Shown: piece after piece, positions 804 through 52,173 of the stretch
Layout: each line of letters begins with the position of its first letter
Position numbering within the stretch: position 1 is the first letter of the stretch
Origin: an uncultured delta proteobacterium
GTDB taxonomy: Bacteria; Myxococcota_A; Polyangia; Palsa-1104
Direction of reading: 5' to 3'
Length of the DNA stretch: 64,000 bases
NCBI GenBank assembly: GCA_963785725.1
Contig: CAWAWS010000007.1
Location: 384,001 to 448,000 of the forward strand
The notes under the pieces: model-generated
The model's database searches: none
Seen by the model: only the letters and a program-made list of their open reading frames with translations
What the model was told of the DNA's origin: nothing
Made by a program: the position numbers and the translations under genes

Positions 804-899
804 TGGTCAAACCATTAGCACGCGTTTCCGAAATTGGTTAAACCATTGCCGCGCGTTTCCCGGCAATGGTTTAACCAATCGTGGTCGCTGGTTCAACCA
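804..899. promoter_or_regulatory. Four TGGT-N3-ACCA palindromic boxes in a divergent promoter region
   Basis: Boxes start at 804, 835, 867 and 889 (spacings 31, 32, 22 bp), between divergent genes. Confidence 0.8.
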
Positions 900-933
900 T
901 TATGGTTCGTCGATCGCGTGCTACGATCATCGC

Positions 934-1680
934 GTGGACGCTGCGACCCTCGCGCGCCGACTAGTGGCGCTGCCCGCCGCCGCGATGCGCCAGGCCGCGC
1001 TGCGCGCGACGCTCGATCCGCTCGACGACGAGGCGGCGGCGCGTTTGTGCGGCGAGCTCGTGCGGCGCGGGCCCGATGGCTCCCCGTTCGATGTCGCCCT
1101 GTTGGCGCTGACGGCGCTGCTCGACTCGAACGCGCTCGGCTACGAACGGCACGCGGCGCTCTACGCGACGGCGCGCCGCCTCGACGACGAGCAGCTCAGC
1201 CTGCTCCTGTTGTCGGCGCAACCGCCGCCGCCTGGCCGTCCGCAGGCGGTCGAGTTTCCCGGGCGCGAGCTGACGCTGGGCGAGCGGAAGTCGTTGGCGC
1301 GCGGTCGGCGTCGCGAGCTGCTCGATCGACTGCTGCGCGATCCCGACGACAGCGTGCTCACGATCTTGCTCGGCAATCCACGCATCACCGAGGCGGACGT
1401 CGTGCGTCTGGCTGCGCGCCGACCGACGACGGCCGCCGCGCAGCGCACGATCCTCAGGTGCGAGCGGTTCATCGCGCGCTACGCGGTGAAGCGGGCCCTC
1501 GTGTTCAACCCCTTCACGCCGACGGATTTGGCGTCGCGCCTGCTCGTCTTGTTGGCGCGGCCCGATCAGCACGCCGTCGCCGCCGACGCGTCGCTGCACG
1601 ATACGGTGCGCGCCGCCGCGCGCGCCGCCGTGAAGCGCCCGGCGATTGGTTTGACCTTATTGCGCGGCGGAAAAGAGTAG
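934..1680 (+). CDS. Hypothetical protein (helical repeat-like C-terminal half)
   Basis: GC-rich codon usage from GTG 934; TGcTACGAT -10-like element 6 nt upstream; ERKSLAR...LLGNPRITEADVVRLAARRP. Confidence 0.65.
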   Translation: MDAATLARRLVALPAAAMRQAALRATLDPLDDEAAARLCGELVRRGPDGSPFDVALLALTALLDSNALGYERHAALYATARRLDDEQLSLLLLSAQPPPPGRPQAVEFPGRELTLGERKSLARGRRRELLDRLLRDPDDSVLTILLGNPRITEADVVRLAARRPTTAAAQRTILRCERFIARYAVKRALVFNPFTPTDLASRLLVLLARPDQHAVAADASLHDTVRAAARAAVKRPAIGLTLLRGGKE

Positions 1681-1907
1681 GCGTCATTCCGGTCAGCGTG
1701 GGCGGAGGCTGCGTTGGCGTCGCCTCGTGGTAGTCGGCACGGCAGGCGGCGCTCGTTCTCATCACGCGACACGAAGCATTGGGCACTTCCTCGTTCGACA
1801 CGGCTCTCGCCCTCGCCGCCGATTGGTTTGACCTCTGCGCGCGTCACAATCGGCTGTTCAAGGGCGAGGCTGGTTCGCTCGCGATCGAGAGGGAGCGCGC
1901 GCCCTCT

Positions 1908-2067
1908 CGCAACGCCCGGATGCACGGCTGAATCGAATACCAACGAATGGTTAAACCAATGCGCGCAGTGGGTTGCGCGCGGTCGACAGGGACAGCGAGC
2001 TCCGCGCAACGCCCGGATGTACGGCTGAATCGAATACCAAGAATAGTTAAACCAATGCGCGCAGTGG
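1908..2067. repeat. ~63-bp direct repeat (1908-1971 and 2005-2067), each carrying a box
   Basis: cgcaacgcccggatgYacggctgaatcgaataccaa(c)gaatRgttaaaccaatgcgcgcagtgg occurs twice. Confidence 0.85.
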
Positions 2068-2191
2068 TTTAACCAATGCGCGCAGCGTGAGCCAAGGCGT
2101 TGAGTGGTCAACCAGCGCGCTGAAGTAGTTAGCCAATGCGCTGAGTGGTTAGCCGGTTAGCTAATGCGCTAGGTCGTTAGCCAATGCGTTC

Positions 2192-2290
2192 ATTGGTTAA
2201 ACCAATGCGTTCATTGGTTAAACCAATGCGTTTATTGGTTAAACCAATTCGTTTATTGGTTAAACCAATGCGTTCATTGGTTAAACCATT
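2192..2290. repeat. Tandem array of five 21-bp units, each with TGGTTAAACCA; degenerate units upstream (2041-2190)
   Basis: attggttaaaccaatgcgttY repeated; boxes at 2194, 2215, 2236, 2257, 2278. Confidence 0.95.
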
Positions 2291-2308
2291 GTGCACTGAT
2301 CGGCGGGA

Positions 2309-3247
2309 CTAGAAGACGAAGGCGCCGGAGAAGCTGAGCTGGACTTGGCCGCGTGACCGGTCGGTAATTTGCGTGGGATCGACCTTGCCGCAGTCGGTGG
2401 CGCTGTCGTTGCAAAACGTGTAGGCGAATTCGCCGGTGAACGCGAGGAAGTCGTAGAGCACCCGGAAGCCGGCGAACATGCGCCAGCGAACGATCGTGTC
2501 GGGATCGGGGAATATCGTGTTGGCGTTGATGTCGTTGGAGGTCGCGCCCTGTTTGTAGCTGTCGACGGCGGGCGTCGTGTCGATGACTTCGCCGCGCACG
2601 AAGCTGAGCAGCGCGCCGGCGCCGATGTACGGATCGAGCGTGAACGTGCCGCCGACGCCGAACGACTTCGAGACGGTCGCATCCAGCGCCAGCGTCGTCA
2701 GATCGACCTCGCCCGTGCCGAGCAGGTGCGACACCGACGCGCGCACCGCCAGCGACGGCAGCGCCCAGCCGTGAAAGCCCTCGTGCAGCGCAAACTTCGC
2801 GTAGCCTTGCACCGCGTACAAATTGCTGTCGATGAGCTTCGTCGCGCCGGCGCCGACCTCGAAGCCGGGCAGCGGCCACCACAATCCTTTGCGCGCCATC
2901 ACCGAAATCGTCGACAAATAGCTCGAGGAAACGCTGGATACGCCCTGTTTCCAGTAATCGGCGTTATTCGATATCTGCGTAAATTGCGTTTCGAATGCCA
3001 ATTGAAAGCCGGAATAGCCGAGCGTATCGGCGGGCGCCAGCGGTCCCGGCGCCATCACCAGCGACAGCTCGCTCATGAGGCTCTTGTACATCGACTGCCG
3101 CGTCGGATCGGTCGGATCGTTGAACGTCCCCGGCGTCGACGGTGGGCCGATGATGCGTTCGAGCGTCAAGTCGTTGCGGTCGGCGCGCGCGCGCAAGGGC
3201 AGCGCGGCGACGGCGAATGCGCACAGACCGACGGTGAGCGCGCGCAT
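2309..3247 (-). CDS. Hypothetical exported protein, probable outer-membrane beta-barrel
   Basis: Signal peptide (ARA-D), amphipathic strands, C-terminal Phe (GAFVF). Confidence 0.7.
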   Translation of the reverse strand: MRALTVGLCAFAVAALPLRARADRNDLTLERIIGPPSTPGTFNDPTDPTRQSMYKSLMSELSLVMAPGPLAPADTLGYSGFQLAFETQFTQISNNADYWKQGVSSVSSSYLSTISVMARKGLWWPLPGFEVGAGATKLIDSNLYAVQGYAKFALHEGFHGWALPSLAVRASVSHLLGTGEVDLTTLALDATVSKSFGVGGTFTLDPYIGAGALLSFVRGEVIDTTPAVDSYKQGATSNDINANTIFPDPDTIVRWRMFAGFRVLYDFLAFTGEFAYTFCNDSATDCGKVDPTQITDRSRGQVQLSFSGAFVF

Positions 3248-3312
3248 GTCCGTCGACGAGGCTAACCGCGCGCTCTCTTGAGTGTCAAGAAACGTTGCAG
3301 TAGCGTCGGCGC

Positions 3313-4104
3313 ATGTCCTATAGCGAGATCTTGTATGAAGTGCGCGACTCGGTCGCTCGCATCACGCTCAATCGGCCCGACAAACGCAACCCGCTCGGCC
3401 CGACGACGATCGGCGAGCTTCTGCACGCGCTCGACGGCGCCAAGCGCGACGACGGCGTGCGCGTCATCGTGCTCACCGGCGCCGGCAAGGTGTTTTCGGC
3501 CGGCGGCGACCTGTCATCAATGGGTAGCGGCGGTACGCCCCTGCAAGCGAGCGGGAGTGGTTCAACCAAAGCGGGAACGTTCGTCGATCTGAACTTGGCG
3601 CTCACGCAGGTGGGCAAGCCGACCATCGCGATGGTCAATGGTCACGCGCTGGCGGGCGGGCTCGGGCTCGTCGTTGCGTGCGACGTCGCCATCGTCGCGG
3701 ACGACGCGCAGCTGGGGACGCCGGAGATCAACGTTGGGCTGTGGCCGATGATGATCATGGCGACCATCTTCCGCAACGTGCCGCGCAAGCGTGGGCTCGA
3801 GCTCATCATGACGGGCGACAAGATCTCGGCGGCGCAGGCGGCCGAGCTCGGCTTGGTCACGCGCGCCGTGCCGCGCGATCGGCTGGAGGCCGAGGTCGAT
3901 GCGCTGGCGCAGAAGCTGGCCGCGAAGTCGCCGATCGTGATGAAGCTCGGGCTGGAGGCGTTTTATCGCGTGCAGGACATGGAGTTGGAGCCGGCGCTGC
4001 AGTATCTGCAAGGGCAGCTCATGGCGGTGTTGTCGACGGAGGATGCGCGCGAGGGCTTGATGGCGTTCCTCGAGAAGCGCGCGCCGCAGTGGAAGGGGAA
4101 GTAA
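3313..4104 (+). CDS. Enoyl-CoA hydratase/isomerase family protein
   Basis: ITLNRPDKRN, FSAGGDL, GHALAGGLGLVVACD, PEINVG, AFLEKRAPQWKG. Confidence 0.95.
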   Translation: MSYSEILYEVRDSVARITLNRPDKRNPLGPTTIGELLHALDGAKRDDGVRVIVLTGAGKVFSAGGDLSSMGSGGTPLQASGSGSTKAGTFVDLNLALTQVGKPTIAMVNGHALAGGLGLVVACDVAIVADDAQLGTPEINVGLWPMMIMATIFRNVPRKRGLELIMTGDKISAAQAAELGLVTRAVPRDRLEAEVDALAQKLAAKSPIVMKLGLEAFYRVQDMELEPALQYLQGQLMAVLSTEDAREGLMAFLEKRAPQWKGK

Positions 4105-4124
4105 GCCCAGCGCCCGTTGTGCAA

Positions 4125-4360
4125 TGGTTAAACCAATTGCGGGATTGGTTTAACCATTGAATTTTCCGTTGCGTTGGCAGCAAGCGAGCAGCGGCCGCTG
4201 CGAAATTGTGGTCAGGCGGCGCGGCCGCCGTTGCGAACTTGTGGTTAGGCGGCGCGGAGGCCGCCGCGAACTTGTGGTTAGCCGCGCTGCGGCTGTCGCG
4301 AGTCGTGGTCAGACCGAGCCTTCCTCGATGGTCAAACCATTCGCCTGATTGGTTTAACCA
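4125..4360. repeat. Two 21-bp-spaced box pairs flanking three 33-bp repeats carrying TGGTYA half-sites
   Basis: Boxes at 4125/4146 and 4329/4350; gcgaaMttgtggtYa at 4200, 4233, 4266. Confidence 0.85.
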
Positions 4361-4390
4361 TTCGCGAAGCCGCCGATCGGCGGTGGAGCG

Positions 4391-5509
4391 TCAGGGCTGC
4401 GGATCGGCGCAGCAGCGGAAGCCGGTGGAGTAGTCGTGATACGTCTTGGCGTGGGCCGTCGTCGTGTAGAGGCAGCCGGGACCGTTGATCTTCGCGTCCA
4501 CGAAATAGCCGCCCTTGAAGATGCCGTCGCCGGCGCTGCTCGTGGCGTCGATCCACTCGTGCAGATTGCCGTGTAGATCGTAGATGCCCCAGCTCGACAC
4601 GCAGCGCGGAAAGCTGCCGCCGGGCGCGACGGTGTTCGGCTGGTCGTCGCAGCAGCTGCTGTTCATGTTCGCGGACGTGAATACGTCGCCGGTGCCGAAG
4701 CAGTCGTTGACGGGATTCGTCGCGCGGCCTTCGTTGCAGGCACCGGCCTGGTAGGTGTTGCCGTAGGGATAGGTCCAACCTTGCGGCCCTTGGCAGGCGG
4801 CCAGCCATTCGCTCAGCGTGCACAGTCGCTTGTGTGCGGCGGCGCAGGCGGCGGCGGCCTGCGCTTCGCTGATGTAGCCCTGCGGCTTCACGCCGTCCGC
4901 GACGACGGCGACAATGGTTGAACCTTCGGCGACCGTGTCGACGGGCTGATCGTACGGATGCGCCGTCACCGCGCCGGTCGCGTCGACGACTTCGGTCGCG
5001 GCCTCGAAGCGGTCGACGCAAACGGCGCTGGCGCTCGTGCTCGTGCCACCGCCGCCGCCGTTCGCCGTGCCGCCACCAGTTCCGCCGCCATTTGTGCCGC
5101 CGCCGCTCGAGCTGCCACTCGAACCCGCCCCGCCGCTCGAGCTGCCACTCGAACCCGCGCCGCCGCTCGAGCTGCCGCTCGAACCCGCGCCGCCGCCGCT
5201 CGAGCTGCCACTCGAACCCGCGCCGACGCCGTTCGCGCCGCCGGTTCCGCCGCCATTCGGACCCGCGCCGCCGCCATCGGCGGTCGCGCTGCCGCCGTCG
5301 GCGGCGACGAGGCTGACGCGCGCCATGCCCGCCGGACAGCCGTTGCCTGCGTCGGGCGGTGCGGCGCCGCCGTCGCTCGTCACGCCGCCGTCATGCCCGC
5401 CGCCGCCGTCGCGCGCGCTGCCGCCATCGGTCACACGCGGGCTGTGCGACCGCGAGCAATTGGTTAAACCAATCGCGACCACCCAAGCGCACACGCGAAA
5501 TCGGCGCAC
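4391..5509 (-). CDS. Lipoprotein with Gly/Ser-rich linker and C-terminal FGE-sulfatase (SUMF1-like) domain
   Basis: Lipobox-like GLTNC; CVDRFEA, KRLCTLSEWLAACQG, YDLHGNLHEW, GFRCC. Confidence 0.85.
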   Translation of the reverse strand: MRRFRVCAWVVAIGLTNCSRSHSPRVTDGGSARDGGGGHDGGVTSDGGAAPPDAGNGCPAGMARVSLVAADGGSATADGGGAGPNGGGTGGANGVGAGSSGSSSGGGAGSSGSSSGGAGSSGSSSGGAGSSGSSSGGGTNGGGTGGGTANGGGGGTSTSASAVCVDRFEAATEVVDATGAVTAHPYDQPVDTVAEGSTIVAVVADGVKPQGYISEAQAAAACAAAHKRLCTLSEWLAACQGPQGWTYPYGNTYQAGACNEGRATNPVNDCFGTGDVFTSANMNSSCCDDQPNTVAPGGSFPRCVSSWGIYDLHGNLHEWIDATSSAGDGIFKGGYFVDAKINGPGCLYTTTAHAKTYHDYSTGFRCCADPQP

Positions 5510-5549
5510 GCCTCAGGATAACGGAAGACGACTGTGCTAGGGCTAATGC

Positions 5550-6950
5550 GTGTCATTTCGCGATCGCTACGAGCCCTTCATCGCCTGGCGTTACCTCTAT
5601 CGCCCGCGGCAGAACAAGACGGTGCGCACGCTGACGCTGTGGCTGCTGGCCCTGACGCTGCTCACGCACGTCGCGGCGCTCTTCGCTCACACGCAGCTGC
5701 AGGTGGTCGGCACGGCGCTGGCGCTGCCGTCGCTGCTATCGTTCCTGTTTTGCCTGCTGCTCAACGTCTTCTCGGGATTTACGACGGTGTCGATCATTGG
5801 TGTGACCATTGGCGTGCAGGCGTTGATGGTCGTCTTGGCCGTGACCTCGGGCTTTCAGCAGGCGTTCAAGCAGAAGGTCCTCGGCGTCAACGCGCACGTC
5901 ATCGTCATGAAGTACGGCATGGACTTCGCGGAGTATCGCGACGTCATGAAGAAGGCCGAGCAGCAGCCGCACGTCAAAGCGGCGGCGCCGTTCGTGTTCA
6001 TCGAGGCGATGGTGGCGGCCGACAAATCGTTCGGCGCGATGATCAAAGGAATCGACCCGGTGCGCTCGCTGCAGGTGCTCGACGTCAAGCAGAGCCTGGT
6101 CAGCGGTCGGGTCGAGGAGCTGGCGCGGCGCGCACCGCCGAACGATGGCGGCGATCCGCTGCCGTCGGCGCTGATGGGCAAGGAGCTGGCGAAGAAGCTG
6201 CACGTCAAGCTCGGCGATCGCGTGCGCCTCGTGTCGCCGAAGATCGATCTCGACCCCGGCGCCGGGCAGCTGGCGTCGCGCGAGTTTCGGCTCGCGGGCG
6301 TGTTTTCCACGGGATTCCAAGAGTACGACAGCCGCCTCGTCTACATCAACGTCACCGACGCGCAGGCCTACACCGGCAGCGGCGACGTCGTCACCGGCGT
6401 GGAGCTCAAGCTCGACGACGTCGACAAGGCGCAAGCGGTGGCCAAGACGCTGTACGCGAATTTAGGCGGACCGCCCTATCGCGTCATCGATTGGGAGGAG
6501 CTGAACCACAACTTGTTCACGGCGCTGCGCATGCAGAAGGTGATCATCACCGTCATCTTGACGCTGATCGTGATCGTGGCGGCCTTCAACATCATCGCCG
6601 CGATGACGCTGCTCGTGATTGGTAAGACCAAAGAGATCGCGATCCTGAAGTCGATGGGCATGCGTTCGGCGGGCGTGGCGCGGCTGTTTCAGGCGGCGGG
6701 TTTGGTGATGGGCGGGCTCGGCATCACATGCGGTCTCGGCGTCGGAGCAGCGACGGTGGCGGTGCTGCGGCGCTACAATTATCAGCTCGATCCGCATGTC
6801 TATTTGATCGATCAGCTGCCGGTGAAGGTGAACGCCGACGAGGTCTTGTTGACGGCGGGAATCACGCTCGCGATCTGCTTCGTGGCGACGCTGGTTCCGG
6901 CGCTGCAAGCGGCGCGGTTGGAGCCGGTCGAGGGGCTGCGGTACGAGTAG
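5550..6950 (+). CDS. lolE: Lipoprotein-releasing ABC transporter permease, LolC/E family
   Basis: SIIGVTIGVQALMVVLAVTSGF, LIVIVAAFNII, KEIAILKSMG, PALQAARLEPVEGLRYE. Confidence 0.9.
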   Translation: MSFRDRYEPFIAWRYLYRPRQNKTVRTLTLWLLALTLLTHVAALFAHTQLQVVGTALALPSLLSFLFCLLLNVFSGFTTVSIIGVTIGVQALMVVLAVTSGFQQAFKQKVLGVNAHVIVMKYGMDFAEYRDVMKKAEQQPHVKAAAPFVFIEAMVAADKSFGAMIKGIDPVRSLQVLDVKQSLVSGRVEELARRAPPNDGGDPLPSALMGKELAKKLHVKLGDRVRLVSPKIDLDPGAGQLASREFRLAGVFSTGFQEYDSRLVYINVTDAQAYTGSGDVVTGVELKLDDVDKAQAVAKTLYANLGGPPYRVIDWEELNHNLFTALRMQKVIITVILTLIVIVAAFNIIAAMTLLVIGKTKEIAILKSMGMRSAGVARLFQAAGLVMGGLGITCGLGVGAATVAVLRRYNYQLDPHVYLIDQLPVKVNADEVLLTAGITLAICFVATLVPALQAARLEPVEGLRYE

Positions 6951-6994
6951 GCGCGCGTCGCGCGTGAAGCTCTGCTCGCCGCTTAACGTTGCAA

Positions 6995-7130
6995 TTGGGG
7001 GCGCGCGTCGGCGCTGCGAGCGTGAGCCCGCGATAAGCCATCCACCATCTTGCGCGTTCCACGGATGGCCGGCGCGACCGAGCGGAACGGCGTGGCCGAT
7101 GCTCGCTCGACCGGCCGTCAGCGACAGCCG
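6995..7130 (+). repeat. Dispersed ~150-bp element, copy 1 (most diverged)
   Basis: ttgggggcgcgcgtcggcgctgcgagcgtgagcccgcgataagcc...gatggccggcgcgaccgagcg. Confidence 0.75.
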
Positions 7131-7222
7131 ATGCGGCCACTGGCCGCCCGCGCCATCCCGCCGAGCAGCGCGACCGTACTGCTGCGTGCCCGTGCGTGCA
7201 CGATCACGCGCGCGCGCCGCCG

Positions 7223-7987
7223 CTACTGGGGCAGCTCGAACGTAAACTTATACGACTGAATGACATACGCCGCCGGCTTGCCATCCGTCGTCATCGCCGG
7301 CGTGAACTTGCACCGATGCATCAGCGTGTACTTCGCCTCTTCGTCGAGCCCATGCCCCAGCCCCGACAAGACCTTGATGGCGTGCACGTGCCCCTTCTCG
7401 TCCAGCTCGACGCGCAGCTTCACCTCGCCCTCGATGCCGAGCTGCTGCGCCTCCGCCGGATACTGCGCCATTTTACCGCACGCCTCGCCGTCGATGTCCG
7501 GCATCGTCTTGACGTAAACGTCCGACACCGGCGCGTAGGACGGCTTCGCCGGAATCGCCGACGCCGCCGGCAGCGGCACGACCGGCCCTTTGCCCGACTT
7601 CTTGGGATCGATCATCGTCGTATTGCCGACCGGCACCGCCATCGACGCGTCGCCCTCCGTCGTCGACGACATCGACACGCCGAAAATAGGCTTGGGCGGC
7701 TCTTTCGGCGGCTCCTTCGGCGGCTCGACGTTCGGCGGCGGCGTCACCGTCGGCGGCGGCGCCACGCGCTTGATCGGAATGACCTTCGGCTTCGGCGGCG
7801 GCTCGACCGGCTTCGGCGGCGGCGGCGTCACGCTCTTGACGACCGGCGCCGGCGGCGGCGGCCGCACGTCGATCTCCACCACCTTTGGCCCACGCGGCAA
7901 CGGCGGCGGCACATGCAAGAGCCCGTACGCGATGCCGACGTGCACGACGATCGCACCGGCCAACGCGACGATTTCAGAGCGCTGCAA
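7223..7987 (-). CDS. tonB: Energy transducer TonB
   Basis: N-terminal TM with VHxxI, Pro-rich linker, YPAEAQQLGIEGEVKLRVELD C-terminal domain. Confidence 0.9.
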   Translation of the reverse strand: MQRSEIVALAGAIVVHVGIAYGLLHVPPPLPRGPKVVEIDVRPPPPAPVVKSVTPPPPKPVEPPPKPKVIPIKRVAPPPTVTPPPNVEPPKEPPKEPPKPIFGVSMSSTTEGDASMAVPVGNTTMIDPKKSGKGPVVPLPAASAIPAKPSYAPVSDVYVKTMPDIDGEACGKMAQYPAEAQQLGIEGEVKLRVELDEKGHVHAIKVLSGLGHGLDEEAKYTLMHRCKFTPAMTTDGKPAAYVIQSYKFTFELPQ

Positions 7988-39533: not shown

Positions 39534-39552
39534 TCGCCCTTTCAAGTTCGCC

Positions 39553-40263: not shown

Positions 40264-40332
40264 GGGTCCGCATGTATATACGTACAGCGTGGCTGCTTCA
40301 ATGGTTCAACCATTTCCGCTATCGTGCGCTCG

Positions 40333-42459: not shown

Positions 42460-42564
42460 GGGCGTGCTGCGAACGTCGGAGGGCGTGCTGCGAACGTCGG
42501 AGGGCGTGCTGCGAACGTCGGAGGGCGTGCTGCGAACGTCGGAGGGCGTGCTGCGAACGTCGGA
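42460..42564. repeat. Five perfect 21-bp tandem repeats (gggcgtgctgcgaacgtcgga)
   Basis: Directly visible. Confidence 0.95.
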
Positions 42565-42656
42565 TACTGCGAAACTTCGGCCGTCTGCCTTGAGTGATTC
42601 GCGGGGACGGCCGGCGAAATAGGCCTCGATCGGCCTGGGTTTGCGGCGGGTCGTGC

Positions 42657-43646
42657 TCAGCCGGCGAGTAGCGCGGCCGCCGTCGCTGCGCCGCCGTCGT
42701 CGCCGGCACATGCGAGCGCCAGGGTGCCTTGGGCGGCGTGACTGAAGAATTCAGCGACGGCGATGAGCGGCGCCGCGCCCAATGTATTCCCGTCGCTGAC
42801 GGCGCTTCGTGCAGCGCTGGCGGCGGATGAGCCGGCATCCCATTCGCGCCCTTGCACGCGGGCGCGACGAGCGGCGGCGCCATCAGCGGGCGCAGCCAGG
42901 ACGCGCCCGAACGCGCCCGCCGGCAGATCGGCCGCCGCCAGCGTTCGCGCGATCGCGTCAGCGACGGCCGCCGCGCGCGCGCCGGCGTGAAACGCGGCCG
43001 CCGCCGCCAGCAGCCGCCCGCGTGGCGTCGCGCCCCGTCGCGCAGCATCGCCGGCTCGCTCGAGCAGCAGCGCGGCGCTGGCGTCGACCAGCGCCGCGTC
43101 GGCGTAAAGGGACGGCCCGTCCCCCGCCAAAATTCGCGTCAACAACGGCGTCGCCACCTCGGCCGCGCACACCAACACGCGGTCGGCGCGCCCACGCTCG
43201 ATCAGCGCCACTCCTTCGGCGAACGCGTCGAGCCCACTGGTCAAACCATTGCACCACGCCGTCGCCGGACCGCGTACGCCGTAGTGAATCGAGACCTCAC
43301 CGACGGGAGACGAGGGCAACGTGTACGCGAACAGGCGTGGGCTGGCGCCGAGCTGGCCGTCGCGAACCAAGCCGCGATAGTAGTCTTCGTTGGTCGCGTG
43401 GCAGCCGAAGGCGCTACCGAATACGATGGCCGTGCGCTCGCCGTCCCATTCGGGCGCAGTCGGCGCCAGCGCGCCGTCGAGCAGCGCGCCATCGCAGGCC
43501 ACGAGCGTCAGCGCGCACAGGCGATCCATGCGCGCCAGCCGTGCCTCTTTGCCGGCCCAGCGCGCCGGCGCGAGCGCGGCGCCCGGCATGACCGCAACCG
43601 CATACGCGCCCGTCACCACCACTTCGGTTCGCCGTTCTCGCGCCAT
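42657..43646 (-). CDS. Beta-ketoacyl synthase-like protein lacking the catalytic Cys (chain-length-factor-like)
   Basis: VVVTG, RMDR, SPRLFAYTLPS, VSIHYGVRGP; GLTSG where an active KS has ACASG. Confidence 0.8.
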   Translation of the reverse strand: MARERRTEVVVTGAYAVAVMPGAALAPARWAGKEARLARMDRLCALTLVACDGALLDGALAPTAPEWDGERTAIVFGSAFGCHATNEDYYRGLVRDGQLGASPRLFAYTLPSSPVGEVSIHYGVRGPATAWCNGLTSGLDAFAEGVALIERGRADRVLVCAAEVATPLLTRILAGDGPSLYADAALVDASAALLLERAGDAARRGATPRGRLLAAAAAFHAGARAAAVADAIARTLAAADLPAGAFGRVLAAPADGAAARRARVQGREWDAGSSAASAARSAVSDGNTLGAAPLIAVAEFFSHAAQGTLALACAGDDGGAATAAALLAG

Positions 43647-43670
43647 CGCCAAGGCTGTAGAGTCTACGCA

Positions 43671-45725
43671 ATGCGGCAATCGGCGTCGATTTCGAAATGG
43701 TTAAACCAATCCTTGGCGCTGTTGCTGCTCGTCGCCGCCGGCTGCAGCAGCAAGCCAGTCGGCCCGCAGGCGGTCATGCAAGCGACGACGCCGCTCGACC
43801 TGCGCCTCTTGCCCTGGCCGTCGGATGCGCTGCTCGGCGACAACGGTAAGCTGCAGGTGGCGACGCCGTTCCCCTTCGATTCGCTCGTCGAGGACAATCT
43901 GACGCAGCTGGCGGCGTCGTTGTCGGAAGCGGACGGGTTTTCGTCGACGCGTTCGATCTTCTTCCCCGTCGACGCGGATGTCGTGCTCGACGCGGGCGCC
44001 GTCGCGACCGTGGCCGACCTCGACGACGCGACGCAGACGTGGAGCTTTCCGCTCTTTTATCGCGCGCCCTACAAGCAGCTCGTGGCCATGTCGCCGCTCG
44101 GGACGTCGCTGAAAGAGCACCACAACTACGGCTGCTGGATCACGAGCGGCGTTCACGATGCCGCCGGTCACGCGCTGCGGCCGTCGCCGACGATGCACGA
44201 TGCCATCGCTGGAAAAGGGGCGTTTGGCGGCAAGGCGTCCTATCAGAAGTTGGCGCAGCGTCTCGCTTCGTTAAAGGTCAAACCATTGGCGGCGACGGCG
44301 TTCACGACGCAGACGCTGACCGGCTGGGTGCCCAAGGTGCTCGACGATTTGACGGCCATGCCGCCGGTGGCGCACTTCACGCGGCTCTTCGCCTCGTCGG
44401 ACGACCTGCAGGATCTGTTCGGCGGCCCGGTGACGACGACGCTGCCGGGCCGTCCGGCGTCGGGCGGCGTGCTGCACGATCAGATCGGCTTCGTCCTCGA
44501 AGGCACCTACGACTCGCCGCACTATCTCGCGCCGACGCCGGATGTGCTCGGGCTGTTCGACGCCGCGCAATCGGTGCAGTCGGTCAACTCCATCCCGTTC
44601 ATATTGGTCCTACCAATTCGCGGCGACTATGCGAACACGCCGGTGGCGATTTTTCAGCACGGCATCGACAGCGACCGTTCGGCGGTGCTGTCGGTCGCCA
44701 ACGACTACGCGGCGCGCGGCTACGCCGTCCTCGGCATCGACGAGCTGTGGCATGGCTCGCGACTACCGGGCAACGTCGACAAGGTGTTCAACCTCTCCGG
44801 CGCGCCCGGCAGCGACGGCATCGGCGACCCGAGCAGCGGCGGCGCGGTGTCGTGGTTCTTCGACTTCAACGGCAACTCCAGCGCCGGCATCCTGTCGCTC
44901 GACGTGCGCTGCATTCGCGACAACTTCCGCCAAGCGACCGTCGATCTCATGCAGGAAGTGCGACTCGCGCGCAGCGGTGATTTCTCGTCGCTGGCGGCGG
45001 CCGACCCGCGCTTGGCGACGCTGACCATCGACGGGGCCGATCTCGTCTATACGTCGGAGTCGTTCGGCTCGATCTTGGGCGCGATCGTCGTCGCCGTCGA
45101 TCCGATGCTCGACTCGGCCGTGCTCGACGTCGGAGGCAGCGGCATGCTGGCCGATCTCGTGCCCAATTCGCCGGAGTTCGGCCCGCGACTGGCGCCGCTC
45201 GTCTCCAACGCGTTCGATATCGACGCCGATCTCGACGATCCCGACACGCTGCCCGTGCGCGCGCAAATGTCGTTCAACCTCTTGCAGCAGGTGCTCGATC
45301 CGGCCGACGGGCTCGCGCTTTCGTCGGGGTCGACCGCGAGCAAGAGCCTATTTTTCCTGCACGACTTCGCCGACGAGACGGTGCCGAATCAGGCGGAGGA
45401 GGCCTTGGCGCGCGCGTTCGGCGCCACGCAGGTCGTGCTCGCGCAGCAGTCTCATGCGCTCACGTACGTGACGTTGCCGACGACAGCGGCGCCGTATGCC
45501 GCTTCGCCGCTGCACGCCGTCGTCGAGTTGGCCGGCGCCGGCCACGGCATGTTCACGACGCAGGAAGGCACGCACAACTATCAGTTTCCGTTTCCGCCGT
45601 TCACGATGCTGCCGGCGGTGCAGCCGTTCGACGAGCCGACCGCGTTGGCGCACGCGCTGGCGCTCGACTTCATCGACAGCGTTCGCGCCGGCGCGCCCAG
45701 CATCACCGATCCGACCGCAAATTAA
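43671..45725 (+). CDS. Lipoprotein, VolA/Pla-1-like lipase (alpha/beta hydrolase) family
   Basis: Lipobox AAGC; PWPSD, ADGFS, FQHGI, IDELWHG, RDNFRQ, SESFG elbow variant, DETVPN. Confidence 0.7.
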   Translation: MRQSASISKWLNQSLALLLLVAAGCSSKPVGPQAVMQATTPLDLRLLPWPSDALLGDNGKLQVATPFPFDSLVEDNLTQLAASLSEADGFSSTRSIFFPVDADVVLDAGAVATVADLDDATQTWSFPLFYRAPYKQLVAMSPLGTSLKEHHNYGCWITSGVHDAAGHALRPSPTMHDAIAGKGAFGGKASYQKLAQRLASLKVKPLAATAFTTQTLTGWVPKVLDDLTAMPPVAHFTRLFASSDDLQDLFGGPVTTTLPGRPASGGVLHDQIGFVLEGTYDSPHYLAPTPDVLGLFDAAQSVQSVNSIPFILVLPIRGDYANTPVAIFQHGIDSDRSAVLSVANDYAARGYAVLGIDELWHGSRLPGNVDKVFNLSGAPGSDGIGDPSSGGAVSWFFDFNGNSSAGILSLDVRCIRDNFRQATVDLMQEVRLARSGDFSSLAAADPRLATLTIDGADLVYTSESFGSILGAIVVAVDPMLDSAVLDVGGSGMLADLVPNSPEFGPRLAPLVSNAFDIDADLDDPDTLPVRAQMSFNLLQQVLDPADGLALSSGSTASKSLFFLHDFADETVPNQAEEALARAFGATQVVLAQQSHALTYVTLPTTAAPYAASPLHAVVELAGAGHGMFTTQEGTHNYQFPFPPFTMLPAVQPFDEPTALAHALALDFIDSVRAGAPSITDPTAN

Positions 45726-45762
45726 CGAGGCGCATAATGGTTAAACCAATCCAAGAAATGGT

Positions 45763-47004
45763 TTAACCATTGGCGCGAGTGAGGACGACGGCGGCGTTCG
45801 TGCCGCCGAAGCCGGACGACGTCGACAGCGCGACGCGCACGTCGGCGGCGCGCGGCGCGCCGTGCACGACGTCGAGCGCGATCTGCGGATCGATCTCACG
45901 CAGCCCAGCGGTGGGCGCGATCTGGCCGGCTTCGAGCGTGCGCACGCAGACGATCGCCTCCAACGCCGCCGCCGCGCCGAGCGTGTGGCCGAGCGCGCCC
46001 TTGACGGAATTGACCGGGATGGCCCCGGCGCGTTCGCCGAAGACGTGACGTAACGCGTGGCCTTCCATCAGATCGTTGAAGACGGTGGCGGTGCCGTGCG
46101 CGCTGACGAAGCCGACGGCGCCCGCGTCCTGGCCGGCGTCGACGAGCGCGGCCTGCATGGCGCGGGCGGCGCCGCGGCCTTCGCGGTCGGGCCCGGTCAT
46201 GTGCACGGCGTCGGCGGCGACGCCGCTGCCGTCGACGAAGGCGCGGATGCGGGCGCCGCGATCCCGCGCGTGCGGCTCGGCTTCGATGACGAGAAAGGCC
46301 GCCGCTTCGCCGAGGTTGAGACCGCGGCGGCTGCCATCGAACGGGCGACAGAGCTCGGCGTCGAGCGCTTTCAGGCAGGCGAAGCCTTGAATGACGAAGT
46401 CGTGCAGCGCGTCGGCGCCGCCGGCGAGCACGACGTCACAGCGGCCGCTGCGGATGAGCGCCAGGGCGGCGTCGATCGCGACGTTACCCGACGCGCAGGC
46501 CACCGAGGGCACGACGAGCGGGCCGCGCGCGTCGACGGCCGCGGCGACGGCTTGCGCCGGACCGGCGTAGCCCCAGCCTTGCGGCGCGCGCAGTGGTGCG
46601 GTTGATGGTTCAACCATTGCGTCGATTGGTTCAACCACTGCGCCGATTGGTTTAACCATTGACGCGCCCGCTTCGACGTCGGCGCGAACGAGCGGCAGCC
46701 ACGACGCGATGCCGCCCAGCGTCGTGCCGCAGGCGACGGCGAGCCGCGGGCCGCGCGGGACGTTGCCGGCGTCGGCGAGCGCCTCTTCCGCGGCCCAGCG
46801 CGCCAACGTCGCGGCGCGCGACGGCGCCGTCAGCGGTAAAGCTTCGACGAGCGCCACGGGGCCGACGCGCAGGCCGACGGCGCTCAGCTGCGGCTGCTCG
46901 CGCATGGCGCGCTCGCCGTCGAGCAGTGCCGTCCACAGCCGCTCGACGCCGCGGCCGAAGCCCGTTACCGCGCCCATTCCCGTGACGACCGCGCGAATGC
47001 TCAC
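45763..47004 (-). CDS. Beta-ketoacyl-ACP synthase (FabF-like) with box-derived in-frame insertion
   Basis: ACASG, CRPFD, GLNLGE, AHGTATVFND, KGALGHTLGAA, SSGFGGTN. Confidence 0.93.
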   Translation of the reverse strand: MSIRAVVTGMGAVTGFGRGVERLWTALLDGERAMREQPQLSAVGLRVGPVALVEALPLTAPSRAATLARWAAEEALADAGNVPRGPRLAVACGTTLGGIASWLPLVRADVEAGASMVKPIGAVVEPIDAMVEPSTAPLRAPQGWGYAGPAQAVAAAVDARGPLVVPSVACASGNVAIDAALALIRSGRCDVVLAGGADALHDFVIQGFACLKALDAELCRPFDGSRRGLNLGEAAAFLVIEAEPHARDRGARIRAFVDGSGVAADAVHMTGPDREGRGAARAMQAALVDAGQDAGAVGFVSAHGTATVFNDLMEGHALRHVFGERAGAIPVNSVKGALGHTLGAAAALEAIVCVRTLEAGQIAPTAGLREIDPQIALDVVHGAPRAADVRVALSTSSGFGGTNAAVVLTRANG

Positions 47005-47124
47005 GGACGCTCGCTGGCCGCCGAATGTTCCGGCTCGAGCGCGCTCACGGCCGGCTGCGGGTAGGGCGCCGTCACCGCGAGCCGTTTACCGCGCGCGCCG
47101 TCGGCGGCCCGCCATCGCAGACTG

Positions 47125-47384
47125 AGGGCCGCGCAGCCGCCGTCGCTGGCGCTGCCGGGCACTGCTGCGGCGGATTCCAGAAGTCGAGCTCTGCCGATAG
47201 TCCACCGCAAGCTCAGGGCCGCGCAGCCGCCGTCGCTGGCGTCGCCCGGCAGTGCCGGGGCTGCCGCTGCGGATTCCGGAAGTCGAGCTCCGCCGACGGC
47301 CAAACGCAGCAGGCTCACGGCGCCGTCGCCGTCGCTGGCGTCGCCGGCACTGCCCGCACCGGCTGCGGCGGATTCCAGAAGTCG
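47125..47384. repeat. Three ~90-100-bp degenerate copies that include the acyltransferase 3' end
   Basis: gccgtcgctggcg...ggattccRgaagtcga occurs three times. Confidence 0.8.
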
Positions 47385-48271
47385 AAGAAGTTGAACCATT
47401 GCTCCGGATACTGCCGCACGTACCGTTCGTACACGGCCACGATACGCGCCGTCGCCTCGCGCACGTCGGCGTCGCGATCGCTCGTATGCGCCACTTCGAT
47501 CGGCGGCTCGACGTGAAACGTACAGTGCGTGCGCGTCTGGTCGGCGATGATGAACGTCGGCAAGAGCGGCGAGCCCGTCGCGCGCGCCAACGTCGCCGGC
47601 CCCAGCGGAAACGGCGCGTCGTGCCCGCAAAACGGCAGCCGCACATGCGGCCCGCCGGTGAAGCGATCCATCTGCATCCCGACGAGCTCGCCGCGACGCA
47701 GCACGCGCGCCAGATCGAGCGTCGCGAACGGCGAGCGCGTCGTGTACACGATGCTGAATTTCTCGCGAAACTGCCGCTCCCACTCGCCGGTGCCTTGGTT
47801 CGGCTCCTCGGCCATCGCCATCGTCAGCGGCGGATAACTCTTACGCTTCATCAAGATCGGCGCGATCTGCCAAAAGCCGAGATGCCCCGTGACGACGACG
47901 GCGCCGCGCCCCTCCTGCTGCAGCTTCGTGATGTGCTCTTGCCCGAGCGTCACCGCGTCGACGGGAACCGCTTGCCCGGCGTGCAGCGCGTACATGTTGG
48001 CGATCGACTGCGCGTAGTTCACGAAGAGGCGAAAGCTGCGCGCCTTCGTCTCCAGCGGATTGGTAGGACCAATGACGCGCTCGAGATTGGCCTCGATTAC
48101 GCGCCGCGCGCGCGGCACCAACACATAGAAAATACCGGCCCAGAACGGCATCGTCGCCCGCTGCAGCGGATGCGAAATGTTGCGAATACCGGCCATCATC
48201 ACCCGGCGGTAGAACGGACCTTCGAAGCGATGGCGAAACGCTTGAGCTGCTGACTGTTTCCGACTGCGCAT
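47315..48271 (-). CDS. Lysophospholipid/lipid A (LpxL-like) acyltransferase
   Basis: VVTGHLGFWQ, VGMQMDR, FPLGPATLARATGSPL, VRQYPEQWFNFFDFW. Confidence 0.9.
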   Translation of the reverse strand: MRSRKQSAAQAFRHRFEGPFYRRVMMAGIRNISHPLQRATMPFWAGIFYVLVPRARRVIEANLERVIGPTNPLETKARSFRLFVNYAQSIANMYALHAGQAVPVDAVTLGQEHITKLQQEGRGAVVVTGHLGFWQIAPILMKRKSYPPLTMAMAEEPNQGTGEWERQFREKFSIVYTTRSPFATLDLARVLRRGELVGMQMDRFTGGPHVRLPFCGHDAPFPLGPATLARATGSPLLPTFIIADQTRTHCTFHVEPPIEVAHTSDRDADVREATARIVAVYERYVRQYPEQWFNFFDFWNPPQPVRAVPATPATATAP

Positions 48272-48289
48272 ACGGACGCGCAGTATCCC

Positions 48290-51200
48290 CTAAAGTCGTG
48301 CGGGCGTCACGTCGCGCAAGAGCAGCACGTGATCGAGCTCGATCGCCGATCCTTCGCGCTTGAGCTCGATGCGAATTGGTTTAACCATTTCTGAAATTGG
48401 TTTAACCATTCTCGCTTCCTGGTAACGCGGGCCCAACGTCAGCGGCGGCAGCGCCACGCCGTCGACGATGACCGTCAGCTGCGCGTTGTCGCCGAGGGCC
48501 CGCGCGCGCACGAGGATGACGTCGGCGCCCGCCGGCGCGACCGCGCGCAGCGACGCCGTGGGCGCGTCGAGCGTACAGCTGCTCGCGCCCAGCCACTGCT
48601 CGAGCGCGGCTTCGACGGCCGGGACGCGCCCGTGGCGACAGACGAGATCGATGCCACCGACGGTCGACGGCGGCGGCGCGGCTGGCAGCGGCGCGTCGGT
48701 GACGCGCGAGGCCTGCATGATCGGCCGCGGCGACGGGCGCGCATGCACGGGCGGACGAAAGCTGTTCGGCGCCCACGTCGTCGTCGCGACCGCGCCGAGG
48801 CGAACGAGCGCTTCGCTGGCGCGCGGCAGCGGCGGCTCGGCGGCGGCGGCCGCCGCCAGCGCGTCGACGGCACGCGCGTCGCCGGCGAGACCGAGCGCCC
48901 AGGCCAGATCGACGCGCGCGTCGTCGTGATCTTCGACGGCAAAACGATCGAGCAGAGCCCCGGCGGCGCGACGATCGCCGACTCGTCCGGCGATGCGACC
49001 GACGGAGACGTAAGCGGCGCCGCGTACGCGCGGGTCGGCGGCGACGCTCCACAAGGCGGCGACATCGCCGGCGCCGCCGACGAAGCCGAGGTAGTGCGCG
49101 GCTTCGCGCTGCAGCGCCGCGGCGGCGCTGTCGCCTTCGGCGAACGGGCGACGACAGATCGCGGCCAAGCGCGGCGCCGCGGCGTCGTCGCGCAGACGGC
49201 CGAGCATGAGGGCGGCGCGATCGCCGTAGGCATCGTCGTCGACGAGCGCGCGCAACGCGGCGCGGGCGCGCGCGTCGCTGAGCTGGCCGAGCGCGAGCGC
49301 GGCTTCGGCGCGCACGGCGGGATCGCGGTCGGCGAGCGCGGCTTGTAACGCGGCCGCGGCGGCGAAGGCTTCGCGCTCGCCGAGCTCGCGGGCGGCTTGG
49401 GCGCGCGTGGCCGCCGGCTGCGTCGGGTCGCCGAGGCGCGTCGCCAGCAGCGACGGCGGCGATTGGTTCAACCATTGGCCGAGCGCCGCGCGCAGCTCGC
49501 CGCCGACGTCGGCGTGCACATCGTAGGCATTCCGCATTTCGCGCGGATCGGACTGCAGATCGTAGAGCTCGTCGACGTCGCGGCGCAGATCGTGAATCAG
49601 CTTCCACGGCCAACGCAGCAGCATGCGACGCGTGTGCACGGCCGCGACGACGTCGCGCGGCGCCGGGTCGAGCGGCGGCAGCGGGCGGCCGTCGCCGGCG
49701 CTGGGTGGCAAGCCGGCGAGCGCGGCCAGCGTCGGGGCGACGTCGACGAGCGACACCGGCGTGGCGATCGTCACAGCCGGCAAGAGCGCGCGGCCGACGA
49801 CGGTGACGACGAGCGGCACGCGCAGCTGCTCGTCGTAGACCGAAGAGCCGTGATACGCGCCGCCATGCTCGCCGAACTCCTCGCCGTGATCGCCGGTGAT
49901 GACGAGCAAGGTCGGGCGCGCCAAATTGGTTAAACCATTAATGAGGCGAGCGAGCGCGCCATCGACGGCGGCGACTTCGGCGTCATAACGAGCCAGTGGC
50001 GGCGCATCGGCGGGCAGGCCATGCAGCTCGTAAGGCTCGTGCGGATCGAAGTAGTGGACCCACAAGAGCGAGCGCGGCTCACCATCGGCGACGAGCTGCT
50101 GCACGCGCGTCAACACGGCGTCGGTCAGCTCCTCCGCGGGCAGCGTGCGCGTGTCGACCCATTCGAAGCCGAAATGATCGTTGGCGTACGGTAGAAGTGG
50201 CCCGCCGCCGTCGAAGAAGAGGCCGGCGGGGAAGAATGCGGCCGTCAGCCAGCCTTGGGCGCGCGCGATCTGCGCCAGCGTCGGTGGGCGCGCGTCGAGG
50301 TGCGACGGGTGGTGGGCGGTGAGCAGCGCCGTGATCGACGCGGCTGTCGAGGGTGCCGTGGCGTAGGCGCGGCTGAAGGCGAGGCTGTGCGCGGTGGCTG
50401 CGGCGACGAGCGGCATGTGCTCCGGCCGCAGGCGATCGGCGCGCAACGCGTCGACGGTAACGATGACGACGTGCGCGTCGCCGAGCGGCGCGGCGGCCTG
50501 CGCCCAGATGTCGGCGAGATCGGCGTCGGCGCGGTTCAGGGGCGCAAGATTGGTTAAACCATTCGCCGCGGCGGCGGTTGCGCCGGTCGTCACGCCCGGC
50601 GCCGACGGCGCGCCGTTCTTGGCGGCCGCAGCCGTCGTCGCCGCCGGGCGAAGAGCCGTCGCAGGCTGACTCAGCGAGCGCGCGACGAATGGTTTAACCA
50701 TTGTCACGGCGTCGAGGACGAGCGCGGTAGCCGGCGCTTGCGCGTTGGCCACGAAGCGCGTGTTGGCGCTGACGTCGACGAGAGTGCGACCGGCGAGCAA
50801 GAGCAGCACGCCGGCGAAAGACGCGACGGCGGACGATCGCCAGCGACGCCAGCTGCGCCAGTCGGCGGGCAGGCGCGGCTTGGCGGCGCCGAGCGCGCAC
50901 GCGAGCGCGACGAAACCGATGGCGAGCAGCGTCGCGCGCAGCGACGGGTAGAGGCGGCGGGGCAAGAGCGCTTCGAAGGCGAGCGTCGCCGCGCCGGCGG
51001 CGGCGAGCAGGACGCGGCCGAGTGGCGCGCGGCCGACGTGGAGCCGCGCGATCGACGGCAGCAGCCACAGCGCGGCGGAGATGGTGGCGGCGAGCAGCGC
51101 CGGCGCCGCGCGGCCGAGTCGCGCTTGCGCCAGATGGGTGGACGACAGCGCGATGCCGAGTGGAATGCCGGCGACGACGGCAGCGGCGGCGCGCGCGATC

Positions 51201-51661
51201 CGATCGGCTGCGAGCGCACGCGCACGCGCAAGTGCCGACGGCGCGCCGAGCGTCGTCGGCGATGACGGATTGCGAGCGGCATCCGCGACGTCGCCAACAG
51301 CGCGCGCAACATCGTGGTCGGAAGACGCGCCGTCGCGATCGGAAAGCGCGACGTTGCGAGCGGAAGACGCGCCGTCGCGATCGGAAAGCGCGACGTCGCG
51401 AGCGGAAGACCCGACGTCGCGAACGTTGCGAGCGGAAGACGCGCCGTCGTGGTCGGATGTCGCGACCTCGCGCCTGGCACCGGCCGTGAGCGCGCGCAGC
51501 CATGGCGTGAGGAGCAGCGCCGTGCCGCAGGCCAGCGCGAACGCGCCCGACCACAACGCCGCGCGCTCGCCGACACTGGCCCAAGCGCGCCGCAGCATGA
51601 GCACGTCGACCGTCGCCACCATCGCCGCGGCCCACAGCGCCGCCCGTCGGGTCGCATGCAT
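48290..51661 (-). CDS. Membrane-anchored sulfatase-like hydrolase/transferase with C-terminal HEAT repeats
   Basis: N-terminal TMs, VTVDALRAD, LWVHYFDPHEPY, YDAEVAAVD, ITGDHGEEF, LYDLQSDP; ALADRDPAVRAEAALALG. Confidence 0.82.
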   Translation of the reverse strand: MHATRRAALWAAAMVATVDVLMLRRAWASVGERAALWSGAFALACGTALLLTPWLRALTAGARREVATSDHDGASSARNVRDVGSSARDVALSDRDGASSARNVALSDRDGASSDHDVARAVGDVADAARNPSSPTTLGAPSALARARALAADRIARAAAAVVAGIPLGIALSSTHLAQARLGRAAPALLAATISAALWLLPSIARLHVGRAPLGRVLLAAAGAATLAFEALLPRRLYPSLRATLLAIGFVALACALGAAKPRLPADWRSWRRWRSSAVASFAGVLLLLAGRTLVDVSANTRFVANAQAPATALVLDAVTMVKPFVARSLSQPATALRPAATTAAAAKNGAPSAPGVTTGATAAAANGLTNLAPLNRADADLADIWAQAAAPLGDAHVVIVTVDALRADRLRPEHMPLVAAATAHSLAFSRAYATAPSTAASITALLTAHHPSHLDARPPTLAQIARAQGWLTAAFFPAGLFFDGGGPLLPYANDHFGFEWVDTRTLPAEELTDAVLTRVQQLVADGEPRSLLWVHYFDPHEPYELHGLPADAPPLARYDAEVAAVDGALARLINGLTNLARPTLLVITGDHGEEFGEHGGAYHGSSVYDEQLRVPLVVTVVGRALLPAVTIATPVSLVDVAPTLAALAGLPPSAGDGRPLPPLDPAPRDVVAAVHTRRMLLRWPWKLIHDLRRDVDELYDLQSDPREMRNAYDVHADVGGELRAALGQWLNQSPPSLLATRLGDPTQPAATRAQAARELGEREAFAAAAALQAALADRDPAVRAEAALALGQLSDARARAALRALVDDDAYGDRAALMLGRLRDDAAAPRLAAICRRPFAEGDSAAAALQREAAHYLGFVGGAGDVAALWSVAADPRVRGAAYVSVGRIAGRVGDRRAAGALLDRFAVEDHDDARVDLAWALGLAGDARAVDALAAAAAAEPPLPRASEALVRLGAVATTTWAPNSFRPPVHARPSPRPIMQASRVTDAPLPAAPPPSTVGGIDLVCRHGRVPAVEAALEQWLGASSCTLDAPTASLRAVAPAGADVILVRARALGDNAQLTVIVDGVALPPLTLGPRYQEARMVKPISEMVKPIRIELKREGSAIELDHVLLLRDVTPARL

Positions 51662-52173
51662 GAGCTTCTTGTATCGCCGATGCAACGGCGTATGGTCAAA
51701 CCAATGGTGATGACGCCGCGCGTTGCATTCGTCGCGCCGATCGTTGCTGCGCCTGCCGCGGTCATTCGCGCGCGGAACGCGTTGTTCGCGTCGAGTGAAG
51801 GCGAGGAGGCTATGCGTGCTCCGTCGCGGCGAGCGCTCGTCTTCGCGCCGAGCGCGCGCCTTCCATTTGTAGCCGTCGCGCCGAGCGAAAGCGGAGGCCA
51901 GCCATGCGCGCGACCCGTGCTGAGCGAAGGATGTCGCGAGTGCGCGATGTGCCGAGCGCGCGATGTCGCGGGCGCGCGACGTGCCGAGCGCGGTCGTGCC
52001 GAGCGCTGGCCGTCGCCACGCGCGCCGTCGTGCCGCGCGCCGACCGTCGCCATGCCTCCACCGCCGTCGCCATGCCGCCGCCGCCGCCGCCGCCGCCGTC
52101 GCTGACGTACCCTCCGCCGCGCCCATCTCGCCGCCGCCGCCGCATTTGCCGAAAGCAGTGCTACAACGTCGGC

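Follow-up and report, generated by a model that had tools for sequence, protein, structure and literature searches.

What could have placed 49 copies of one palindrome in two blocks of a myxobacterial chromosome? The question is raised by a 64,000-nucleotide stretch from an uncultured delta proteobacterium (Myxococcota_A; Polyangia; Palsa-1104; assembly GCA_963785725.1, contig CAWAWS010000007.1, positions 384,001 to 448,000), hereafter the window, which in our numbering is C7:384001-448000 of genome G000 (~8.89 Mb, 68% G+C). An initial annotation had counted 49 TGGT-N3-ACCA boxes in two domains, A and B, and had read them as sites of a protein that coats or bridges DNA. The count holds: 19 exact sites lie in 804-6630 and 30 in 37119-51703, none occurs elsewhere in the window, including the stretches described as empty (~6.7-37 kb and 52-64 kb), and shuffled window sequence yields a mean of 0.18 sites and a maximum of 2. 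The box system is real and unusual, it is built from known parts, and it has a plausible reading that is categorically new. From sequence comparisons we propose, with moderate confidence, that a local FadR-type self-repressor has been co-opted to coat position-defined segments of the chromosome.

The boxes are concentrated far beyond the window. Among 206 exact TGGT-N3-ACCA sites in the whole G000 genome, 165 fall within five clusters on three contigs (domains 1-5, Table 1), which span 5-34 kb each and amount to ~1% of the DNA. These 165 sites define a 15-base palindrome with the consensus AWTGGTTWAACCAWT. When the genome was scored with a matrix, 148 of the 149 matches of at least 22 bits fell inside 88.5 kb of the 8.89 Mb; since the clustered sites themselves served as its training set, the informative figure is the count outside the clusters. 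The genome-wide scan thereby agrees with the earlier claim that the motif is confined to domains, and shows neither the null density nor the uniform dispersion that the initial annotation had listed as grounds for abandoning its reading. Its estimate of 6 kb for domain A needs correction, since this is the right end of a 34-kb domain that starts 27 kb to the left of the window. The sole strong box beyond the five domains, at C20:273119 in a gap between two minus-strand genes, is possibly a seed or a genuine distant operator. A scan of all spaced palindromes in G000 disclosed no other comparable domains; its hits were protein repeats, compositional islands and one small array that resembles operators. 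Rfam and ARAGORN returned nothing tied to the boxes. A cloud of weak half-sites was considered and rejected: there is no clear enrichment below 9 bits, and the A+T shift is due to other words.

Which protein might read these boxes? The initial annotation had left the binder unnamed as a candidate undescribed system, which is not supported, and had remarked on a likeness to FadR-subfamily operators, which is. A GntR-FCD gene of 265 amino acids lies on the minus strand at C7:367773-368570, inside domain 1 and outside the window, 15-16 kb left of window position 1. Its product combines a GntR winged helix-turn-helix (PF00392, E 1.5e-21) with a C-terminal FCD/FadR helical domain (PF07729, E 8e-6), and the best Foldseek matches to its AlphaFold model (predicted local distance difference test score, pLDDT, 84) are E. 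coli FadR and a FadR chimera. The subfamily's operator consensus is given as TKGT-N3-ACMA in PMC4494728, and AWTGGTTWAACCAWT fits this rule as an A/T-rich palindrome with TKGT and ACMA boxes and 3 nt between GT and AC. One box covers the start codon of the gene and another stands 21 bp farther upstream, an arrangement present in G000-G004, G010 and G012. Read as codons, the box gives the N-terminus MVKP, shared by 18 of 20 aligned homologues and by 88 of the 120 database matches listed; homologues with names come from Polyangia and Myxococcales. Since the same box accompanies distant orthologues, in most cases immediately upstream of the gene, the boxes are very likely to be binding sites of the GntR protein of domain 1. 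Its DNA-binding domain is nearly invariant across the family series. A basic C-terminal tail (at least five K/R in the last 10 residues) distinguishes 71 of 77 full-length family proteins from the distant orthologues (0 of 29), against a genome background of 2.4%. The tail is not sufficient for box domains, because G010 has it despite its few boxes.

The relatives of G000 (labelled G001-G012 and so on) place the system in a narrow lineage. Close orthologues of the regulator, at 50-74% identity, were found in G001-G004 and G010-G012 among 31 relatives, and in G001-G004 and G012 the gene sits within a box cluster. We scanned 401 genomes of the class with a pattern stricter than that behind the 206 exact sites; at least eight boxes occurred in six of them, namely G000 (99), G012 (31), G001 (16), G002 (16), G003 (11) and G004 (8). 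All six belong to one family and have the orthologue, and elsewhere the maximum is 4. Proliferation is confined to this one family of soil myxobacteria, with 2 to 99 strict sites per genome; no cultured representative of it turned up in these searches. The 14 genomes with distant orthologues have one or two boxes genome-wide (nine genomes, directly upstream of the regulator in seven) or none (five), and therefore the ancestral state would have been a local self-repressor. As controls, 93 loci (at least 8 kb) of distant FadR genes, among the matches listed in metagenome and genome locus scans, hold 0-3 sites each. Boxes are also present in G007 (51% complete), where the GntR gene was not found.

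Within the family, domains differ in number and content. G002 has three (1, 2 and 4). In G012, domain 1 is accompanied by a domain 2 of greater length and by boxes in a Tad-like cluster. Boxes occupy domain 5 and most of domain 3 in G000 alone, though the genes of these two domains are syntenic in relatives, and none of the 27 boxes of domain 5 has a counterpart in five orthologous stretches, which are free of boxes. The region orthologous to domain B holds 15 boxes in G002, 16 plus 3 in G012, and 0-1 per fetched stretch in G003 and G004. Genes that are in a domain in only some lineages are still boxed there, such as metH in domain 4 of G002-G004 and genes inserted in domain 1 of G012. The central triplet of the box is genome-specific (CAA/TTG in 20 of 32 G004 boxes, TCA/TGA in 15 of 45 G002 boxes), a preference that holds even where it changes the residue at a shared site.

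Boxes pay little heed to gene organization, as the initial annotation had claimed. By our own gene calls, which miss frameshifted genes and so inflate the intergenic share, 47 of the 165 boxes of G000 lie deep inside genes and 8 at gene ends, and the gaps between genes hold 50 (tandem), 46 (convergent) and 14 (divergent). Boxes are densest between convergent genes, where 13 of 14 junctions contain 45 of them, compared with 14 in 7 of the 13 divergent junctions. Six relatives show 60 of 140 boxes deep in genes. The groups are separated by a median of 552 bp; of the 47 gaps below 60 bp, 37 measure exactly 21 bp, and their spacers are mostly unrelated; in G012 the prevailing spacing is 20 bp, at 18 of 21 short gaps. 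Because the spacing is genome-specific while the spacers are free, it may reflect the geometry of the bound protein. Long gaps show no helical phasing at 10, 10.5 or 21 bp, and p ~0.02 at 11 bp, one of five periods tried.

How boxes come and go can be followed by comparing orthologous genes. In ungapped comparisons the box is missing in 112 of 149 cases, and there 52% of the box bases differ compared with 27% in the flanks (residues, 54% compared with 31%). Box-less orthologues average ~6.4 of 15 matches over a background of 3.5, with a bimodal distribution. Most in-gene boxes replace 15 bases without an insertion or deletion (indel); some boxes belong to tandem arrays of 21 bp or to in-frame insertions. 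Of 60 in-gene positions compared across eight genomes, 34 carry a box in a single genome and one does so in seven, and several are common to non-sister genomes without signs of transfer. The replacements appear to be costly: for 35 of 42 box events, 13 of 15 matches cannot be reached by synonymous change from any box-less orthologue, and otherwise invariant residues are changed at 15 of 75 positions in boxes (20%) but at 35 of 451 in flanks (8%; Fisher p 0.002, a test that counts shared events once per carrier and so overstates independence). The best reading of repeated, costly gain at tolerant positions within fixed segments is that selection acts on the density of boxes. Three other origins were tried and rejected. 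A template switch that perfects palindromes is contradicted by variable arm positions that are independent (67 of 165 complementary, 42% expected) and by flanks without symmetry. Copying from a master or neighboring box conflicts with spacers that differ and with neighbors more than 60 bp apart that are identical in 10 of 113 cases, where 9.5% is expected by chance. Horizontal transfer, be it of short patches or of domain 2, finds no support in the trees of domains 1, 2 and 5, which match the species tree (those of domains 3 and 4 and of the left flank lack resolution), nor in the flanks of boxes common to non-sister genomes, which are no more alike than distant sequence.

Of the readings compared, the coating of whole domains put forward by the initial annotation fits these patterns best. 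Each box would be bound by a FadR-type dimer, with dimers two helical turns apart pairing cooperatively, and selection would act on the density of boxes per segment, not on promoter position. Further boxes would be recruited within a segment since they are cooperatively occupied there, so that a new box is worthwhile only inside an existing domain. The outcome could be a looped or compacted nucleoprotein domain with dampened transcription, which the family-specific basic tail would help to hold or bridge, and from which an acyl- or aryl-CoA ligand would release the protein, given that its closest fold is E. coli FadR. More tentatively, a metabolite-sensing repressor might have become a sequence-programmed organizer that nucleates self-extending, ligand-switchable, chromatin-like domains of 5-35 kb, with selection rewriting the proteins of resident genes and the transition, from 2 boxes to 165, still in progress as new domains are founded.

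Several observations weigh against this proposal. G010 keeps the same gene order around the regulator and shows 8 relaxed-pattern matches (three in domain 1, three in domain 2, two elsewhere), and in G011, a fragmented assembly, the orthologue lies on a 1.8-kb contig and no strict box is present; a dense domain is therefore dispensable. The number and extent of domains vary between close species, in contrast to the conserved positions of RefZ sites (10.1101/459685). In the relatives, occupancy is highest at divergent junctions (16 of 35; convergent, 11 of 37; tandem, 23 of 96), so that a promoter component persists, and the left edge of domain 1 is at the kynA promoter in G002, G003, G007 and G012. 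The domains also contain many acyl- and aryl-CoA genes, no coiled coil or partner domain is visible in the AlphaFold model of the regulator, and the intergenic share in G000 is inflated as described above.

Some of these points could also be explained by an over-elaborated but conventional regulon, in which acyl/aryl-CoA catabolism and a type II fatty-acid/polyketide cluster are controlled gene by gene and the extra boxes are auxiliary operators or roadblocks that tighten repression without an architectural role. We regard this as rather unlikely, albeit a serious alternative. The domains do cover tryptophan and aryl-CoA catabolism (domain 1 starts with kynA-kynU-ridA-ech-acad-flavin oxidoreductase-aryl-CoA ligase, and also holds phaR and a second hydratase), an acyl carrier protein (ACP)/fabG/ketosynthase cluster in domain 2 and an acyl-CoA dehydrogenase in domain 3, which together with the predicted FadR fold and the occupancy of divergent junctions in relatives suits such a regulon. 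FadR-subfamily regulators (E. coli FadR, PdhR, LldR) share with our candidate the winged helix-turn-helix and FCD fold and the A/T-flanked TGGT-N3-ACCA palindrome, and PMC4494728 describes operators over their own start and cooperative double sites. The likeness ends with the usual few promoter-centered sites in related operons. Here, 165 near-consensus sites form five contiguous segments, with about a third deep in genes and many between convergent genes, and the regulator has an N-terminus encoded by a box and the family-specific tail. The targets are grouped in contiguous blocks, on both strands, with unrelated genes among them, namely an RNA pseudouridine synthase (rluA-type), a kinase, mltD, tatA, lolC/E, an S1-domain gene, aminopeptidases, metH, glycosyltransferases and the Tad-like cluster. 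Only one strong box lies outside the domains, against 17 acyl-CoA dehydrogenase paralogue hits elsewhere. Nor would gene-by-gene control favor convergent gaps as the densest class in G000, boxes that turn over, or whole domains that are lineage-specific.

Accretion without architecture is the less probable of the two leading alternatives and, in our view, improbable: the boxes would be a sponge that buffers or sharpens the repressor dose, or the product of molecular drive, in which bound DNA is favored in repair, recombination or transfer. The way in which near-consensus sites replace sequence that already matched in part, at tolerant coding positions and by substitution, resembles the DNA uptake sequences and uptake signal sequences (DUS and USS) as described in PMC1939737. 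Four-fold-site G+C is lower in the boxed domains of G000 (0.89-0.92 compared with ~0.95), G002 and G003, and in domain 5 it is 0.89 compared with 0.96-0.98 in the box-free orthologues, which hints at altered mutation, repair or expression. However, this drop is missing in G012 and barely present in G004, both of which are boxed. Uptake sequences are dispersed genome-wide, whereas the boxes are palindromic, occupy 1% of the genome, have a fixed pair spacing and match an intracellular repressor. A sponge requires neither clustering nor costly in-gene sites, and the agreement of the domain trees with the species tree, the lack of extra likeness in flanks and the chance-level identity of neighboring boxes also argue against drive by transfer or copying.

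Could the domains instead mark a fixed address, as a dedicated segregation or division landmark comparable to centromeres, matS, the SlmA- and Noc-binding sites (SBS, NBS) or the RefZ-binding motifs (RBMs)? We consider this very improbable. The centromere-like role suggested by the initial annotation is not supported, and its statement that the motif is not parS is correct: in G000, C19 holds dnaA and canonical parS (~9 kb apart), C6 holds ParB and C26 a dif-like site, and all three contigs lack a box cluster. A single dif-like site was found in each of five genomes, and C26 has no box at all. The G+C skew of G000 is too weak to place ori or ter; the G002 contigs were chained by overlap and synteny into an inferred circle of ~7.9 Mb with ori opposite dif. 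In this inferred contig order, domain 1 lies ~+0.97 Mb, domain 4 ~+1.05 Mb and domain 2 ~-1.25 Mb from ori. These roughly mirrored positions on the two arms are what a landmark might show, and are only a hint, from few domains, of contact between aligned arms. Yet parS and dnaA are ~1 Mb and dif ~2.9 Mb away from domain 1, domain 5 and the extra G012 domain would be ~0.4 Mb and ~1.5 Mb from ori in G002 coordinates, and G010 and the distant orthologues are nearly without boxes.

Known position-marking systems are instructive here. TetR-family regulators have been co-opted in a like manner in SlmA and RefZ, where a transcription-factor fold reads chromosome position through many or clustered palindromes (10.1101/459685). 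Our candidate is a GntR protein. SBS occur throughout the chromosome outside ter, and the five RBMs keep conserved positions (same source), whereas the boxes occur at about one per 0.5 kb in blocks of 5-34 kb whose number varies between species, a concentration unlike the layout of SlmA/Noc nucleoid occlusion. The sites of RacA (ram), RicO (ricS) and MatP (matS) are also sequence-specific and regionally clustered for coating or bridging DNA; the 25 ram regions span ~600 kb and the 9 ricS ~700 kb on the flanks of oriC, and ter is the region marked by matS (PMC4914108 and 10.64898/2026.03.06.710092). The box domains are far denser, lie at neither ori nor ter and do not surround dif, and the model of their presumed binder has no coiled coil. 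With ParB/parS they share clustered palindromes independent of promoters; motif and fold differ, and these genomes have canonical parS and ParB apart from the boxes.

The initial annotation had treated domains A and B as a pair. This is not supported, as there are five domains and the 30-kb distance between these two stems from a rearrangement seen in G000. In G002, G003, G004 and in part G010, lolC/E is followed by a different block including tig-clpP; the lolC/E-tolA junction is derived in G000. Rearrangements symmetric about ori separate G000 from G002. Through one of them lolC/E adjoins the tolA block in G000, and the orthologues of domains A and B are on opposite chromosome arms in G002.

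Mobile-element scars, palindrome-perfecting template switches or an assembly artefact, the last of which the initial annotation had also entertained, would suit the tandem arrays, the in-frame insertions and the frameshifts of the G000 assembly, but are of negligible probability given that most in-gene boxes replace their bases without an indel, that the variable positions of the two arms are independent, that flanks lack extra symmetry, that pair spacers differ, that viral contigs hold no double box, and that independent assemblies have boxes in common at orthologous positions.

The origin of chromosome-organizing proteins from ordinary transcription factors has so far been inferred from end points such as SlmA and RefZ. 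If the FadR-type repressor has indeed been co-opted to coat domains, a single family would offer a graded series, from a lone operator through a handful of boxes to three and then five domains, and a case in which selection for binding sites overrides protein sequence in ordinary genes. A small protein and domains of 5-34 kb would make coating, looping, silencing and ligand switching testable in a laboratory strain. A literature search, with subscription journals and supplements outside its coverage, gave no report of dense GntR box domains.

Individual features of the window (Table 1) illustrate this history. Contigs from two independent soil runs omit 31 bases between 808 and 840, equal to one box unit, and contigs from four soil runs cover the region piecewise; no RNA run was among the sequencing runs listed as carrying it. 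The box at 3558 is absent from the orthologous position in six of six relatives scored. The triple at 46606 is represented by two boxes in G002 and by none in the other relatives scored. The pair at 48377 also occurs in G002, and G010 has one in the corresponding interval, which makes the 48377 pair a candidate for an ancestral operator.

Table 1. Coordinates of boxes and domains in the window and in the G000 genome.
Feature	Position	Boxes or context
Domain 1	G000 C7:356573-390620	67 boxes, 34 kb
Domain 2 (= domain B)	G000 C7:421119-435693	30 boxes
Domain 3	G000 C33:40114-52835	29 boxes
Domain 4	G000 C33:59019-64006	12 boxes
Domain 5	G000 C39:304428-315866	27 boxes
Domain A	window 804..6630	19 boxes, right tip of domain 1
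Four boxes (804, 835, 867, 889)	window 804..899	between divergent phaR (157-714, minus) and 238-aa gene (964-1680, plus)
Seven boxes	window 1948..2288	convergent-gene gap; five at 21-bp period (2194-2288), slippage-type array
Box inside enoyl-CoA hydratase gene (3313-4104, residue 82)	window 3558..3568	
Two 21-bp pairs (4125/4146, 4329/4350)	window 4125..4360	between convergent genes
Last boxes of domain 1	window 5461..6630	one upstream of lolC/E, two within lolC/E (5798, 6620)
Synteny break	window 6950..7223	between lolC/E and tolA-tolR-tolQ-like block
Domain B (domain 2)	window 37119..51703	30 boxes
Three boxes, 21-bp (7-codon) period	window 46606..46658	variable loop of ketosynthase gene (45763-47004, minus)
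21-bp pair	window 48377..48408	3' end of sulfatase gene, ~200 bp before acyltransferase-ketosynthase genes

The genes of domain B are birA, a lolA-like gene, ACP, a fabG-like gene, a polysaccharide deacetylase, an enoyl-CoA hydratase, two ketosynthases, a lipase-like gene, an acyltransferase and a sulfatase. At 38209-48199 the LolA-like, ACP, fabG-like, polysaccharide deacetylase, two ketosynthase and acyltransferase genes have sub-threshold NCBIfam hits; this set resembles an aryl polyene/flexirubin-type cluster. The lolC/E gene of the window (5550-6950) has a second copy, 77% identical, at C26:257945. The box-free gap between domains A and B contains RNase P RNA (25901-26273, minus) and tRNA-Met (27100-27174, minus), while a tRNA-Gly called by ARAGORN at 56983-57073 within an htrA-like gene is absent from the Rfam calls and is probably false. 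Both rpoD (29150-31053) and birA (36343-37883) are split across reading frames, probably by sequencing indels, and a long low-complexity tandem repeat precedes birA.

Elsewhere in G000, coding density in domains 1-5 is low (0.56-0.80 compared with a genome median of 0.86), and the gaps are expanded and rich in repeats. A 1431-residue FHA/coiled-coil gene at C33:54670-58965, which relatives match in its N-terminal part only, forms a box-free hole between domains 3 and 4. Finally, seven copies of a different palindrome of 18-22 bp (GATAG-N8-CTATC), five of them at ~90-bp spacing, lie at C39:656272-664123 and are likely operators or iterons of a mobile element.

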